Assembly: GCA_964016885.1 (NCBI GenBank)
Contig: OZ024753.1
Location: 29,822,001 to 29,886,000, forward strand
DNA: 64,000 bases
Direction: 5' to 3'
Source: Eledone cirrhosa
Taxonomy: Eukaryota
Made by a program: the position numbers and the translations under genes. Numbering within the stretch: the first letter of the stretch is position 1; each line of letters opens with the position of its first letter. The notes beneath the pieces were generated by a model, which saw only the letters and a list, made by a program, of their open reading frames with translations, was not told the origin of the DNA and searched no databases. Positions 12,949 through 47,413 of this stretch are shown in pieces.

Positions 12949-13953
12949 CTACGCCTGAACTGTTAACTTGAGCATCATCTTCAAGTGGCTGGTGATGTTG
13001 TCAGCAGAACTGGAGCAATAAGGGGGAGGGGCTGCGGGGAAGGGCATTCTGGCATCACTAGCACAACTACCAATGCCAACGTTGTTGATGTTGATATTGT
13101 TGTTGTTGTAGTTATTGTTATTGTTAGCCATGAGGATGTGGCTGTTTATGCCAGTAGAATTGTTGTTAATGCTGCTGCTAGTTGCTGCAGTGGCAGCTGC
13201 CACCGCGGCCGCCGCTGCTTGAAACGATAATGCCATGTCGTCGCTATTGAAAGGAACTGTTGTTGTCTTTGTCGTTGTAGTCCAATGTACAGGCGGTTTC
13301 GGAAGCACTTTGGGTGAAGGAGGGTCACTGAATTTGGCCGCTGCATAGGCATTACCTGGAACAGCACTGTTGGTAGCTGTGTCCACTTTAGATGACACCT
13401 GACTGGTATTATTAGTAGTAGAGGCCAAGGACGGAATGTCTCCTTCGTGTGTGATTAAGCTGCGCAACTGCTGAGTATTAATTGAGGAGGAGGTTGTGGT
13501 GGTGCTGCTGCTGCTGCTGCTGGTAGCAGTAGTGTTACTACTGTTCTGCCGACGTTGTTGCTTGTTGATATTATTATTATTATTATTGTATTGAGCTGAC
13601 GTCTGCAGTTGTTGCTGATGATGATGCTGCTGGTAGGACGAATAATACATTTGTGGCAACACAGCCATACTGTTGGTATTATTGTTCGACTGCAGCTTCT
13701 GGAGTAACTGCTGCAGGTGCTGCTGCTGTAGTTGTTGCTGCACCACCCGATTACTCAATGATGGCGTAGATAACGCAAAGCTGCTCATATCAGTCGAGAT
13801 GGCTGGTCCATTGTTGTTAAAAGAGTGCTGCTGTTGCTGTTGATGATGGTTAAGTTGATATGCCCTCTTTGTTGTACCTGCCATGGATTGGCGTTGCAGT
13901 CGCACTTGTCCAGAAGCACCCGTTCCAATTTTCTTCATCTTGGGGAAAGTCAT
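12949..13953 (-). CDS. PNRC: Proline-rich nuclear receptor coactivator (PNRC1/2-like; Dcp1-Dcp2 decapping activator family), 334 aa, uninterrupted ORF
   Basis: Carries the PNRC signature YAAAKFSDPPSPKVLPKPPVHW (compare [22 protein letters not shown]) and C-terminal ITSHLKMMLKLTVQA (compare PNRC2 LKTLLKVQ). ATG-to-TAG ORF with poly-Q/N/S/A tracts. Confidence 0.92.
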   Translation of the reverse strand: MTFPKMKKIGTGASGQVRLQRQSMAGTTKRAYQLNHHQQQQQHSFNNNGPAISTDMSSFALSTPSLSNRVVQQQLQQQHLQQLLQKLQSNNNTNSMAVLPQMYYSSYQQHHHQQQLQTSAQYNNNNNNINKQQRRQNSSNTTATSSSSSSTTTTSSSINTQQLRSLITHEGDIPSLASTTNNTSQVSSKVDTATNSAVPGNAYAAAKFSDPPSPKVLPKPPVHWTTTTKTTTVPFNSDDMALSFQAAAAAVAAATAATSSSINNNSTGINSHILMANNNNNYNNNNININNVGIGSCASDARMPFPAAPPPYCSSSADNITSHLKMMLKLTVQA

Positions 13954-14749
13954 AAGTCATAAAAATCGTTGCTGCAGGTTTTATTCTTTGGTTGTTATTG
14001 TTGTTAGCAGGAACCAATATGGTGTTCATGAAATTCGTAGGTGAATGAATTTGCTTTACTTTCGTTGTTGAGCTAATCGCCTTGCGAAAGTTGAAGTGAC
14101 TGGCTAGCAGCAGGGTTGTGTAAACACACAGGTAAAGCTTATATATATATATATATGTATGTATGTATATATATATATATATATAATATAAACAGCAGAC
14201 TAGATTAGTTCCAGATGCTGGTTAGTTTAGCTTTACTTGCTACTGCTGTTTGTTGTTGATGTTAGCTGCTAGCTTCTAAACACGTACACCACTGCAAATC
14301 ACTCGACTCTGGTCTGATGGTAGCAGATAAAAATACACTCACTTATTATGGTTGTTTTGATGATAAAACCAGTTCAACGAGCTTTTTTTCTTCTTCCCAC
14401 ACCTCTTTGCAGTTAAACAGGATTTAAATATATTTAAAATTCTATTTTACTTTACATATAAAAAATTATAACTTAGATTTTTCTCTCTTTCTTTTTTTTT
14501 TATCGTAAAAATAAAGAATATTTTTGCAATCTAAATATAATCTATAAATATTAAAATATTCAAGATATGGTGAAAGCAATGCTAATCTAAACAAAACAAA
14601 AAAAAATCAAAGCAACTTAAATTTAAGAAGTTGATTTCTGGAAATAATAAAAAAAATAATACTATAAGCCCTAAAAATTAAATATAATTACTGAAAAAAT
14701 AACAAATTAAGAGAGAAATGAAAAATAAGTCACTTGATAAAAACAGTTT

Positions 14750-16424: not shown

Positions 16425-18619
16425 CAATCAATGAAAATATAGAATGTTAGTTTTTGTTTAAATATCTTTTTGGCGGGTTTCTCTTAATAAAATTTAATCT
16501 AAAGGATTTTTGTATAGAATTTTGAAAGCTTAAAATACTTTTTTAAAAATAGTTATTATCGTATATAATATTATTTACTTCCCATTAAGAAGCACACATA
16601 TTTATGTTCTTTCATTGAATAAGCGTTTAAGAACCATAGAATGGAAAGAAAGTTCACAGCTACACGACACTAACATAAACCGACATTTTCCTCCTGTCCT
16701 CCATAGCTATAAAACTTCGTTTTCTAAACTCCTCTCTTCTATTTGATTTCATTAAGATTAATCAAAATGAGTATTTTTATTTTTTAAGTTTAAAAAAAAA
16801 ATCTAGTTAATCATATATCTTAGTCTCAAACCCGATCGTTATATTGAGATGTCTTATATAATGCGTCATATTTCCTAGCTAGACTTGAAACCGGATCAGA
16901 TAGCTTCATATATTGTATATCGAAGACTACATGTAAACTCTATTACTGCTATAGCCTTGCAGTGAAGCATCCGGTATAGGAAATATATTTTCAATTGCTA
17001 TTTAACTCTTTAGATATCAAGTGTACACTTTATTTATTATTATTTATTATATTATAAATAATATAAATAATACACAGATAATCAAACATATATATAGATC
17101 TCCTAGCATAAAAAAGTGTTGCAGTAATTATTGAACCGGATGAAATTAAATCGCATCATATGATGGTATCTGAAATAAAAAATATTTTAATCGGTGTTGA
17201 TAAATTTTATAATTAAAGATAAAATAAATTATTATTAATATCAAGACGTATTTTTTTTTATGAAATAAATATATAAGGATATTTAAAACAGGAAAAAAGT
17301 TTAAAAAATAAAAATAAAGGCAAATAAACAAGGGGAGAGATGCTGCAGTATAATGTGATTAACAGTCCGCATTGGTGGCTGTTTACAACGTTAGTGGTGG
17401 TGGTGGTGGCAATGGCCCTTGATGCAGTGGTATTACTCTTCACTGTGCAAGCCTTGGTGCAATACTGCATGCCGACTGCATGGCGTTATCAGTCCCAATA
17501 GCTTTCAGCTTGTTCTATTCGTCCGACTCTCTATTTATTCTTTCATTCCTTCTCACTAATTTCTATGGGATACATCGGTGTATTTTCCTCTTTCTTCTTC
17601 CTGCCCCCTTTTCTACTTTCTGTTCTAAAAGCTTCAAGACTTTATTTAATATAAAATTAAAATATATTTAAATCAAATAAATATTCATATTTTGTGCTGT
17701 ATTTTTTTTTAGATCTTACATTTTATATATGATTAATTAAAAAAATAAAATAACCAAACGTTATATTATTTTTAAAGCACCGTATTTTATTTATTATTTG
17801 GTTAATGTCCCTGGAAACGTATGGACATTATAACTTCCACTTTCCTACCTAAAACTTTTATTCTTACAAAAAAACAAAACAAAAAAAAATTATTTAGTGA
17901 TGGCATAAATAGTAAAAAAGTAGATTTAATGCTATATAGTATAAGTTTGATACTTCATGTTTCTGAGTTCATATCTCATCTAGTCAACTTGTCTTTCATC
18001 CCATAGAGATCAATAAAATAAGTAAGATACGTCAACTAAATCGACTCAAGTGGCCTTGTGTCTGTCTTAGTCAAAAGAAATTATCACCCATACATACAGA
18101 ACACTTGAATAAAATATTACTTAGAAAATTATTTGAGATTTAGAAAATCGATTTATTAAATGTTAGAAACTCCAGCCATAAATAAAATTAGTTCTAAATC
18201 TGTGTTTGGAAGAGGTTAATAAGACGATTGATTGTACATGTATACAGAGAAATATATATACACACATATATAGCTAACCTACACGCCTGCATACTGACGT
18301 TCGTTTGTACGTATATACACACGTACATAAGGAGCCTCATCACCACACATCGGTCAACACATTCTCTCCTGATTTTTCTCGTCTTTCCATCCTTCCTCTC
18401 ATTATTCGTTAGATGTAAAGTAGATAATAAGAAAGACAGAAAACAAAAAATAGCTGTTTTCTCTATATATTTTGTATTTCTTATTTTATTCAATCCCTAT
18501 CTGTTACAGATCCAGATTTTCTCGTAAGAAAAGCTTACTTAATCTAGTGAACAGCTTAGCTTTTTGTGTTAAGCTCGTGTGGACACAAAGTGGAACAGAG
18601 GCTAAGTCGATCCCACGAC

Positions 18620-18956
18620 ATGCCAGTTGCCACTAGCCAGAAAGAAGCCCAACTTGCCCGTACCTACTCTCTTCTGTCGTCGAAACCTTCAGCCAGTTAC
18701 AGCGGTCGTATCTCACCATCTTTAGTCTCTGCTGCCTCGGAGTCTCTATACACACCCGAAAGCGGTACTCTGCTCTCTGAAATGGGGCAGATTACCAACA
18801 TGCCGACCAACTCCAATAATGACAACACAGGACACTTTTTTAGCACACACAGTCCACCTATATTGAACTTGAGTCCCAACTTGAGTCCCGTTGAACACCA
18901 ACGGACTTCGCCCGGCTATGATTTAAGGGAAACGGCTCGCCGTCGTAGTATACAAG
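18620..18956 (+). CDS. First coding exon of an unidentified multi-exon gene (exon 18510-18956; Ser/Pro-rich N-terminus MPVATSQKEAQLAR...YDLRETARRRSIQ)
   Basis: Pyrimidine-rich acceptor ...CCCTATCTGTTACAG ending at 18509, ATG at 18620 with G at -3, an open GC- and CpG-rich frame, and a consensus donor AAG|GTAAGT at 18956/18957 (phase 1). Confidence 0.75.
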
Positions 18957-19706
18957 GTAAGTTAAACGCTTTTGCCGAAAACCATCCTTTTTCATCCCTC
19001 CCCTAGTTCCGGCTACATGCTACATGTGCTGCAATAATAACTATCACTAAAAACTTGAACATTTACGATTAACCCACCGATCTCCAATTCAACCACTTTA
19101 ATAGAAACCTGCTATTAATTTGTATATATATATATATGAATACACATAAGTGTGTTTTATACACACACAGTATATATATATATATATACCAAGAATACAT
19201 ATATATTTATGTATATATATTGAAACAACCTAGTGTGTGTGAACATCTACGAACTACGAAAGCAGTACATATATACTCACACATGTAGATAGATGGATAT
19301 ATAAATGTGACCTCGCCGAAAATGTGTTTGGTCTTTTATACCCCATCACACGACACCCTGTTCTCCTTTACTAACGTACGTCTTATACACGCATGAAGTA
19401 CCTGCTTTAAATATATAAATCTATCTACCTATCTATATGTGTATGCTATACGTACATACATATCTATCTATCTACCTGTCATTTATGAAGACATGTATTA
19501 ACTAAGCCATACGCCGTAAATATATATTTGTATATATGTATATATATGTATGTATACATATATATGTGTGTGTGTATATATATATATATGTGTGTGTTTA
19601 TGAATATATATATACGTATGTGTGTGTAATGAATATATATGTATATATATATATGTATGAATATATATAGATATATATATGTATGTATACACAATCATAT
19701 ATATAT

Positions 19707-19799
19707 ATAGGAGAAAGTATGACCCCGACGGCTATTTCTGGACAGAAATAGCCGTCGAAACGGCTTGAGCTCTGCCGTCGGGGTCATACTTTCTCCTAT
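19707..19799 (+). repeat. Palindrome containing the 3' half of a hammerhead-like motif
   Basis: Perfect 26-bp outer arms (19707-19732 / 19774-19799), a perfect 15-bp inner hairpin (19726-19757) and GAAACGGC-loop-GCCGTC. Confidence 0.85.
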
Positions 19800-19875
19800 T
19801 ACCCACTCTACTACCCTAAGTATTGAGTACTCTGGTGCGTTATGGTCCATCTGGTTCCTCACCACAACTCCTTCG

Positions 19876-19943
<68 letters not shown>

Positions 19944-20772: not shown

Positions 20773-20860
20773 ATATAGGAAAATGTTTAACCCCGACGGC
20801 AGAGCTCAAGCCGTTTCGACGGCTATTTCTGGACTCGTACATTCTATACTTTCTGCATAT
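20773..20860 (-). repeat. Second, inverted copy of the 19.7 kb hammerhead-like element
   Basis: ACCCCGACGGCAGAGCTCAAGCCGTTTCGACGGCTATTTCTG is the exact reverse complement of 19743-19784. Confidence 0.85.
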
Positions 20861-22347: not shown

Positions 22348-22660
22348 GGAGGCACATGGCTTAGTGGTTAGAGCATTGACCTTGCAATCGAAAGGTTGTG
22401 AGTTCAATTCTCAAGACACTTTATTTCACATTGCTCCAGTTTACTCAGCTGTAGAAATGAGATGATAGGGACTGGGGTCCCTATCATTCCACTGCCAAGT
22501 GGTCGTGGAGGTGCCACGGCAAAAAAGCACCCAGCACTCACTGTAAATGAGGTTGGTGTTAGGAAGGGCATCCAGCTGTAGCAATCAAGCCAGAATCAGT
22601 TCCCATCCCACCCTTGCAAGCAGGGAAAAGCGGACGTAAAATGAAATGATGATGATGATG
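22348..22660 (+). mobile_element. SINE family A (tRNA head + CORE-like domain + RTE tail)
   Basis: A box TGGCTTAGTGG, B box GAGTTCAATTC, CORE-like CAAGACACTT...CCAGTTTACTCAGCTGTAGAAATGAG and (TGA)n tail. Confidence 0.9.
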
Positions 22661-27360: not shown

Positions 27361-27644
27361 CATCATCATCATCATTTCATTTTACGTCCGCTTTTTCCCT
27401 GCTTGCAAGGGTGGGACGGGAACTGATTCTGGCTTGATTTCTACAGCTGGATGCCCTTCCTAACACCAACCTCATTTACAGTGAGTGCTGGGTGCTTTTT
27501 TGCCGTGGCACCTCCACGACCACTTGGCAGTGGAATGATAGGGACCCCAGTCCCTATCATCTCATTTCTACAGCTGAGTAAACTGGAGCAATGTGAAATA
27601 AAGTCTCTTGCTCAAGGAAACAACACATCACCCGGTCTGAGAAT
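27361..27644 (-). mobile_element. SINE family A, head truncated
   Basis: Reverse complement of the 35600 copy; (CAT)n at the left end. Confidence 0.9.
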
Positions 27645-35599: not shown

Positions 35600-35937
35600 G
35601 GAGGCACATGGCTTAGTGGTTAGAGCATTGGCCTTGCAATCGAAAGGTTGTGAGTTCAATTCTCAGACCGGGTGATGTGTTGTTTCCTTGAGCAAGACAC
35701 TTTATTTCACATTGCTCCAGTTTACTCAGCTGTAGAAATGAGGTGATAGGGACTGGGGTCCCTATCATTCCACTGCAAAGTGGTCGTGGAGGTGCCACGG
35801 CAAAAAAGCACCCAGCACTCACTGTAAATGAGGTTGGTGTTAGGAAGGGCATCCAGCTGTAGAAATCAAGCCAGAATCAGTTCCCGTCCCACCCTTGCAA
35901 GCAGGGAAAAAGCGGACGTAAAATGAAATGAAATGAT
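35600..35937 (+). mobile_element. SINE family A, full length
   Basis: Complete head, CORE-like domain and RTE tail; near-identical to the other copies. Confidence 0.92.
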
Positions 35938-43068: not shown

Positions 43069-43402
43069 GAAGGCACATGGCTTAGTGGTTAGAGCCTTGC
43101 AATCGAAAGGTTGTGAGTTCAATTCTCAGACCAAGTGATGTGTTGTTTCCTTGAGCAAGACACTTTATTTCACATTGCTCCAGTTTACTCAGCTGTAGAA
43201 ATGAGATGATAGGGACTGGGGTCCATATCATTCCACTGCAAAGTGGAAGTGTAGATGCCTCGGCAAAAAAGCACCCAGCACTCACTGTAAATGAGGTTGG
43301 TGCTAGGAAGGGCATCCAGCTGTAGAAATCAAGCCAGAATCAGTTCCCGTCCCACCCTTGCAAGCAGGGAAAAGCGGACGTAAAATGATGATGATGATGA
43401 TG
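43069..43402 (+). mobile_element. SINE family A
   Basis: Matches the 35600 copy with a small deletion in the head. Confidence 0.9.
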
Positions 43403-46049: not shown

Positions 46050-46837
46050 ATCATAAAGGAATTTGGAGATTTCAATTTCAAATGCTCTTTACAACACTTC
46101 CTAATTGTGCTGTTGAATATAAGTGGCAGATGTCACAACCCAGGGAAATAATTGTTTCTTCAGTTGGTACAAGGCCAGCAATTTGAAGAAAATCGATGAA
46201 ATCGACCTTATAGTGTGTAACTGCTTCTTTAGTTTGTCAACGTTTATCAACCCTGTGATGATGAAAGGCACAGCTAACCTCGGTCGGGTTTGAACTCGGA
46301 TCATAAAGGACTGTAACTATATACTGCAAAGCATGTTTATATGATGCTCTACCAAGAAATAATTGTTTCTACTTTAGGCACAAGGCCAGCAAAACACCAG
46401 TGCATTACTGGTACTTTATTTTATCGACCCCATATGGATGAAAGGCAAAGTCAACCGCGGGATTTGAACTCAGACAGTAAAGGGACGTAACTATGCTGGA
46501 AAGCATGGTGTCTGACCCTCTATCTATACAGAAATAATAACTTTGTGGACAAATTCATAGGTGTACTCCATTAGGACATGAGGAGGGAGACAGAGGATAA
46601 ACTACAACAACAACAACAACAGTAACAACAACTCACTGAGTGATGTGATGTGTAATGGATATTCTCTTTAGTTACATTTTCTCTATGTCAGCAAGAGGTC
46701 AGTGGTTATTCTTGGCCACTACAACACCCCTTGTGTCAGATAAGTCAGTGAGGATCAAATGATAGATGTGGTAGCATACTTTATGTATATCACTAAACAT
46801 TTACCCTTCCTCACTTTTATGTGTATGATTCTGAATA

Positions 46838-47123
46838 GGGTGGTTGGATGGAGGGAGGAGTAGGTGGCTGGATGGATGGTTGGATGGAGGGAGGAGTAGG
46901 TGGTTGGATGGAGGGATGAGTAGGTGACTGGATGGAGGGATGAGTAGGTGGCTGGATGGAGGGATGAGTAGGTGGTTGGATGGATGGATGAGTAGGTGGC
47001 TGGATGGAGGGATGAGTAGGTGGCTGGATGGAGGGATGAGTAGGTGGCTGGATGGAGGGATGAGTAGGTGGCTGGATGGAGGGATGAGTAGGTGGCTGGA
47101 TGGGTGGTTGGATGGAGGGATGA
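46838..47123. repeat. 24-bp G-rich minisatellite (about 12 units)
   Basis: Unit GAGTAGGTGGCTGGATGGAGGGAT. Confidence 0.95.
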
Positions 47124-47413
47124 AGTAGTAAGGTAGATGAAAAGTAGAATTAAGGTTAGGATAGGATCAAGATTTATTTCAGTGTTATTTACATAATTAA
47201 TCTTAGATCTCATTTTGAAAAGCAGGACACCTGGACTTAGCAGATGTAGAGCTATGAAGAAACCCAATAAAATATGTTTATTGGTGGGGAGCTCCAGAGG
47301 TGGGGCTGGTGTAGGTGTGGGTGTAGGTCATTAATGTGAAGACCTTTAGGCTTGTTTATTATTTGATGGTGGCCGGATCCAGAAATGTACTATATATATA
47401 TATATATATGAAT

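Follow-up and report, generated by a model that had tools for sequence, protein, structure and literature searches.

At positions 19707..19799 of a 64,000-nt stretch of the Eledone cirrhosa genome (the window), a palindrome contains part of a hammerhead ribozyme (HHR), which raises the question of what this locus derives from and how its inverted half was formed. The 93-nt hairpin folds with −62.6 kcal/mol (z −11.1), and none of 200 shuffled sequences was equally good. The original prediction described a type I hammerhead lacking its CUGANGA box, generated by a cDNA that folded back at stem II and copied itself. Re-checking of the sequence found the letters, the order of the elements and the 23-nt deletion between two CGACGGC repeats as described, and CUGANGA is missing from the window copy. 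The assignment of hammerhead parts stood for GAAA, stem III, GUC and the 3' strand of stem I. It failed for the strands assigned to the 5' sides of "stem I" and "stem II", which are an inverted copy of the right arm; the supposed stem II is merely the palindrome tip, and the native 5' half of the ribozyme lies further upstream in the parent element. The window had no Rfam match at gathering thresholds.

A genome search with the hairpin returned 1,348 candidates, 40 of which were scored. In the 30 best loci, the hairpin nearly always has a (TA)n run on one side and a fixed, unique tail on the other. Copies picked by this tail are mostly complete palindromes consisting of an inverted arm, a joint, a direct arm and the tail; longer arms continue into a pLTR and then into sequence coding for reverse transcriptase (RT) and GIY-YIG. 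Locus L184 carries an intact 786-codon frame (stop to stop) with RT and then a C-terminal GIY-YIG, located between tandem pLTRs, adjoining arm and tail and accompanied by an inverted copy; its motifs include FIQFD at 317, YRDD at 415, VIY at 658 and YIG at 673. The diagnostics of the Hydra clade of Penelope-like elements (PLEs), as given by Craig et al. (2021, PMC8557442), are an RWK-type motif, DKT, a CxCX5C linker, CxxC and CxH around E and N, and no CX2-5CxxC. The L184 frame has RWR at 104 (R for K), DKT at 184, CNCPDRSIC at 639, CNLCSEE at 737 and N..CKH at 756; CX2-5CxxC was not found in it, and by eye the protein resembles that of Hydra-1_Obim in the supplement of the same paper. RT with C-terminal GIY-YIG, the (TA)n target, a type I HHR located close to the 3' end and carrying one additional base after A9 (all as in Hydra-1_Obim and its clade), and tandem or inverted pLTR structures with a tail are likewise shared with the clade as described there. 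These motif diagnostics and the likeness judged by eye place the family in the Hydra clade, and the Penelope-like origin proposed for the locus is supported.

The L184 frame had no match in Pfam or in PDB; a protein search with it yielded 660 relatives, with about 37-54% identity among the matches listed. The exact pattern of arm end plus tail occurs 30,060 times genome-wide (reversed control, 0), so that the tail-bearing ends number at least 30,060. Several Hydra families coexist in this genome, since locus L182 (2794-4149, minus strand) encodes in a 452-codon frame a more divergent Hydra-like RT. A non-LTR retrozyme was considered and rejected: tandem monomers with a whole HHR were expected, and single head-to-head stubs with half an HHR were found.

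The whole element in the window spans 19710-19876 and is a dead 167-bp stub of this Hydra-clade retrotransposon, comprising an inverted arm, a direct arm and an 80-nt tail inside (TA)n. Its arm and tail match locus L125 at 127 of 134 bases and L184 at 120 of 134. After the left (TA)n target (19697..19709), the inverted arm (19710..19743, minus strand) starts at priming site B, the end of the pLTR, and extends to +2 of the putative RNA. It lacks the 23 nt of GAAA and stem III, apparently by a slip between repeats that left a fused 7-nt repeat at 19726-19732. The direct arm (19743..19796, plus strand) covers +5 to +58 of the putative RNA and has a single C (19743) in common with the inverted arm. 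Within it, alignment with the parent, pair counts and folds of natural full copies delimit the 3' half of a type I hammerhead (19746..19784, plus strand): the 3' strand of stem II (19746-19756), GAAA (19757-19760), stem III (19760-19778), C17 (19779), the predicted cut 19779|19780 and the 3' strand of stem I (19780-19784). Priming sites B and A bound the 80-nt PLE tail (19797..19876, plus strand) that comes next, and the right (TA)n target (19877..19942) closes the locus. The catalytic core box 5' of stem II is missing, and the window copy, judged from its sequence, cannot act as a ribozyme by itself. In read-derived contigs of one study, the palindrome tip was covered in three of four runs, with no piece spanning the locus. 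A second, independent stub of another subfamily lies at 20778..20835 (minus strand) in (TA)n. Its single arm runs from +1 to site B, with one G and 21 unassigned nt in front of it.

Elsewhere in the window, a 335-codon frame at 12949-13956 (minus strand), with the stub about 5.7 kb upstream of it, has a 22-letter motif near its end and an LKMMLK terminus. By these end motifs it may be a proline-rich nuclear receptor coactivator (PNRC); it had no Pfam match. A GC-richer 148-codon frame at 18560-19006 (plus strand) with a donor-like AAG|GTAAGT site near 18957, also without a Pfam match, may be an exon or part of a transposon. Several further families of dispersed SINE-like repeats, 140-300 bp long, occur in both orientations (including 22350-22629, 27372-27644, 35631-35910 and 43094-43373), and a 24-bp tandem array is found at about 46817-47152.

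In the parent pLTR, the HHR has the order ACCCC-YUGANAA-G, stem II closed by a loop some 33 nt long, GAAA, a stem III of 5 bp, GUC and GGGGU. Three helices, G10.1-C11.1, GAAA, NUH, a 3:8 pair and a free N7, occupied by all four bases, make it a type I hammerhead. The canonical CUGANGA core, a reported property of the Hydra clade and not its definition, is not the core of this family. The YUGANAA pattern gave 6,518 matches genome-wide, and the first 100, sorted by eye, comprised 76 U3:A8, 22 C3-A8, 2 U3-G8 and no C3:G8 cores. Parent copies with CUGANGA, which the original prediction called for, are almost lacking, while the hammerhead itself is present with a U3:A8 core. The canonical pattern had 23 matches, namely about 12 family copies, probably point mutants, 5 copies of an older related family and 6 chance hits. 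This older family (L175, L176, L180 and two more rows) combines the canonical core with the same long loop II and GUCGAAACGG, and is likely an outgroup for the switch to U3:A8. CTGANGA was found within 100 nt of none of 193 cores. Within 4-30 nt of GTCGAAACGGC it had 59 matches, of which the 15 inspected were flank or junction letters without HHR stems. No Rfam hammerhead model was among the matches listed (150 of 238) for six parent loci at E<=10.

Pairing was examined in 27 hand-picked HHR copies. In these, 94.5% of cells were paired, the 3:8 position was paired in 24, and stem II had three compensatory pairs, which separate two subfamily groups and hence reflect few events; their number did not exceed that in shuffles (401/500). 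A diverged older subfamily had U3:A8 in 93 of 100 rows and compensatory changes in stem II, the search pattern having fixed its stem II. Two of three natural full copies reached a clean three-way junction at minimum energy, and four other natural copies gave weak z-scores (−0.4 to −1.5). Another subfamily (L146, L147, L163, L188 and L190) has a C3-A8 mismatch core and was nonetheless amplified. By its core it is a candidate for natural loss of function, and because it too was amplified, cleavage is probably not required for amplification.

The elements end at two fixed sites 80 nt apart, B at the pLTR end and A at the tail end, with a TAT match to the target at each. In read-derived contigs, (TA)n is joined at both corresponding sites of the parent (L184 3909 and 3989); the two sites lie 94 and 174 nt ahead of the first in-frame ATG. 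One A and one B end were found in 101 of 118 head-to-head pairs, and A/A in just 2, the loci being mostly tail-picked and B/B pairs thus under-sampled; end-type counts alone were used from this set, as gapped arm mapping over-extended. The inner ends were mapped in a position-ordered sample from contig C1, with 92 tail ends and their flanks taken from the first 100 of the 30,060 pattern matches. The pattern requires an intact GTCGGGGT and misses arms starting at +40 or later, and about 5 rows are mis-parsed (overlaps of 14-17 nt). An inverted arm was present within 220 nt in 74 of the 92 tail ends, which bears out the suggestion of a systematic source of genomic palindromes. The inversion breakpoints proved non-random and close to stem II, as had been expected: relative to the A of TYAGT, a position in loop II, the interval −3..+8 contains the ends of 66 of the 92 A arms and 56 of the 74 B arms.

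TYAGT resembles an initiator, and we infer that the pile-up there is likely the transcription start. A TATA-like word is located about 30 nt upstream of TYAGT; its absence from the older subfamily counts against a start at this point. The catalytic box lies at −46..−39, upstream of this putative start, and promoter-made RNA would therefore never carry it, which could account for its absence from the window copy. With a start inside loop II, the HHR would form solely at the 3' end of the transcript or in tandem read-through RNA. A start site within the pLTR has been described for Penelope and Chlamys-3 (PMC8557442). The same pile-up might instead come from an RT roadblock or a processing site, such as a splice acceptor TTTAG or a bound protein, with the rest of the model kept. 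This is very unlikely: a pyrimidine tract and TTTAG do occur in several subfamilies, 5'-UTR introns are described in PLE pLTRs of other clades (PMC8557442), and the extra-G cap signature is not significant (18/58, p=0.18) and is confounded by the other arm, but ends at +1 and +2 exceed those at +3, and a shared upstream exon was not seen. Blocking by the stems is disfavoured as well: it would give stops at the stem bases (+18 or +41), and the stretch +9..+18 holds the ends of just 6 of the 92 A arms.

The window stub is probably explained by two-site priming, run-off at the RNA 5' end and head-to-head joining. Each cut end of the (TA)n target would prime RT at its own site on the RNA, the two sites being separated by 80 nt; both short cDNAs would run off the 5' end of the RNA, and the two would then be end-joined head to head. 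In vitro, RT of a Poseidon PLE was shown to begin at two internal sites, one on either side of the tail, and to extend both target strands (PMC11167929). The view that the inversion formed during retrotransposition is supported; its attribution to fold-back of a single tail-primed cDNA at stem II is largely refuted as a general route and, for this stub, quite unlikely. Self-priming has been proposed for PLE junction palindromes (PMC3846280), and fold-back would agree with arms that are usually identical within a copy, with breakpoints near the top of stem II and with some ultra-short copies whose perfect palindrome has its centre at GAGCTC in stem III. However, in the 74 pairs the A arm is longer in 30, the B arm in 31 and the two are equal in 13 (about 4 of these being parse errors), and a longer B arm is not obtainable by fold-back of a tail-primed cDNA, unless A was trimmed by later deletion. 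Many joints are blunt or contain filler, T-runs included, the arms overlap by 0-2 nt in 39 of 74 pairs, and the single-armed copies L196, L260, L261, L264 and L265 stop at the same point as paired arms. The 9-nt subfamily tag is identical between arms in 55 of 73 pairs (shuffled mean, 11), and the arms of one copy therefore come mostly from one source; at least 2 of 73 pairs (L239, L240) nevertheless join arms of different subfamilies. Fold-back also leaves the fixed B end unexplained, and most stubs are without a copy of the native 5' strand of stem II. At the head-to-head joints of L209 and L273, T-runs of about 18-20 nt immediately precede TAGTCC, which suggests that A-tailing or slippage occurred where the template ends.

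Long inverted-pLTR insertions could also have collapsed later by deletion at the palindrome centre through cruciform instability. Long inverted copies do exist, and secondary deletion occurs, as seen from symmetric short ends and from the 23-nt deletion on either arm. Still, random loss would not cluster at −3..+8 across subfamilies with differing loop II, nor give filler-bearing ends exactly at +42, and the same stop is found in copies without an inverted arm; collapse is unlikely. Under two-site priming, a minority of templates would be 3' products of self-cleavage by the HHR, and arms copied from these would stop at GUC|G.

This class was sought among tail ends without the two bases before GGGGT (825 in total). 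Of 25 inspected, 15 had an extra G and 10 started at +42, the predicted cut; in 7 of these 10, the other arm was at +42 or no more than 1 nt from it. As a positional control, ultra-short palindromes of one U3:A8 subfamily were classified by eye (314 matches, the first 100 taken, 96 after removal of 4 duplicates). In 22 copies, both arms end precisely at the predicted GUC|G cut and filler is present; 7 are near +42 with filler, 23 are blunt or near-blunt, 26 have their centre in stem III and the remaining 18 are of other kinds. Thus, 52 of 96 are at or within 3 nt of +42, and the nine neighbouring positions +33..+41 have one filler-bearing symmetric end. The 23 blunt or near-blunt joints are ambiguous with CG microhomology, by which the 18 blunt ones could equally be explained, and the 26 stem III-centred copies are compatible with fold-back or a subsequent deletion. 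If RT stalled where stem III begins, at its base, ends would be predicted at +41 and not +42, a difference of one base. In the lineage of the window copy, about 18 of 89 distinct rows fall by eye into the cut-site class, 5 of them unambiguously. The cut-site stubs likely record in vivo cleavage of read-through RNA, and self-cleaved templates would account for roughly 0.5-2% of copies, with denominators from the first 100 of the 30,060 tail-pattern matches. The wider reading, that a Hydra PLE has its promoter inside its own hammerhead loop and that stubs are a fossil record of RNA starts and self-cleavage in the form of strong-stop cDNA pairs, is tentative, with a little less than an even chance.

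The Y shape of the window hairpin comes from the loss of 23 nt between two GCCGTCG repeats flanking stem III, and among the 30 best copies, 13 have this deletion on the B arm and 17 on the A arm. The tips of Y forms differ from copy to copy, and the form is rare in the position-ordered sample (2 of 74; L206, L262). It appears to be a recurrent slip and not a lineage; the polymerase would slip over stem III between the repeats, during or after insertion. The occurrence of the Y form in both orientations relative to the tail could also point to a hairpin-ended unit replicating as such, like a MITE, a retrozyme or a parvovirus-like flip/flop terminus. This is disfavoured and scarcely credible, given that the tips vary, that the form is so infrequent in that sample and that the pLTR of an RT-encoding element is the source to which both arms map.

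Inverted pLTRs, tails, (TA)n targets and U3-A8 cores are each already in print separately. The Hydra HHRs in File S2 of PMC8557442 all have CUGANGA and loops II of 3-10 nt, whereas here the core is mostly UUGANAA and loop II has about 33 nt with a putative start. The HHR also differs from that of Hydra-1_Obim, the tail has 80 nt against the 30-40 nt typical of the clade, and a 5-bp stem III, a unit of about 3.1 kb and more than 30,000 ends further set the family apart from the elements described there (PMC8557442). The string gtcgaaacggc had no match in the supplement text of that paper, in which long sequence runs are shortened. Poseidon PAc of Anolis (Frangieh et al. 2024, PMC11167929) shares two RT start sites bounding the tail, extension of both strands and an AT-rich target. 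In its description, the sites are inside the ORF and RNA-seq reads ending at the HHR cut are none, whereas here the sites precede the first in-frame ATG and genomic stubs end at the predicted cut. Core covariation to U3-A8 in the pLTR is shared with the min-HHR of the Schistosoma PLE Cercyon, for which about 1,300 matches are given (Cervera and de la Pena 2014, PMC4209133); those HHRs are minimal and of dimer type, whereas helices II and III are full here. Penelopes of Adineta vaga (Arkhipova et al. 2013, PMC3846280) have head-to-head palindromes at an inverted junction and an optional tail. Its authors prefer self-priming on an antisense template, whereas the breakpoints here favour two primed copies of sense RNA. 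A literature search covering few subscription papers found no report of PLE insertions ending at the HHR cut or of twin priming for PLEs. A very large Hydra family, a variant long-looped HHR, and an end map pointing to a start in loop II and to the use of self-cleaved RNA look new.

The locus itself is an ordinary dead stub, and the interest lies in the family. PMC8557442 names two open questions, what hammerheads do in EN+ PLEs and how the inverted repeats and tails of these elements arise; tens of thousands of stubs allow for end maps at base level, by which both become testable. About 24,000 short palindromes in this one genome, a rough lower bound (30,060 x 74/92), would also be a source of double-stranded RNA and DNA hairpins. 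The subfamilies with U3:A8 and C3-A8 cores would, if the proposed reading is true, constitute a natural activity series, and two-site twin priming would account for the inverted pLTR and the tail. The cut-site stubs would then be in vivo evidence that the hammerhead of an EN+ PLE cuts and that the cut RNA is retrotransposed.
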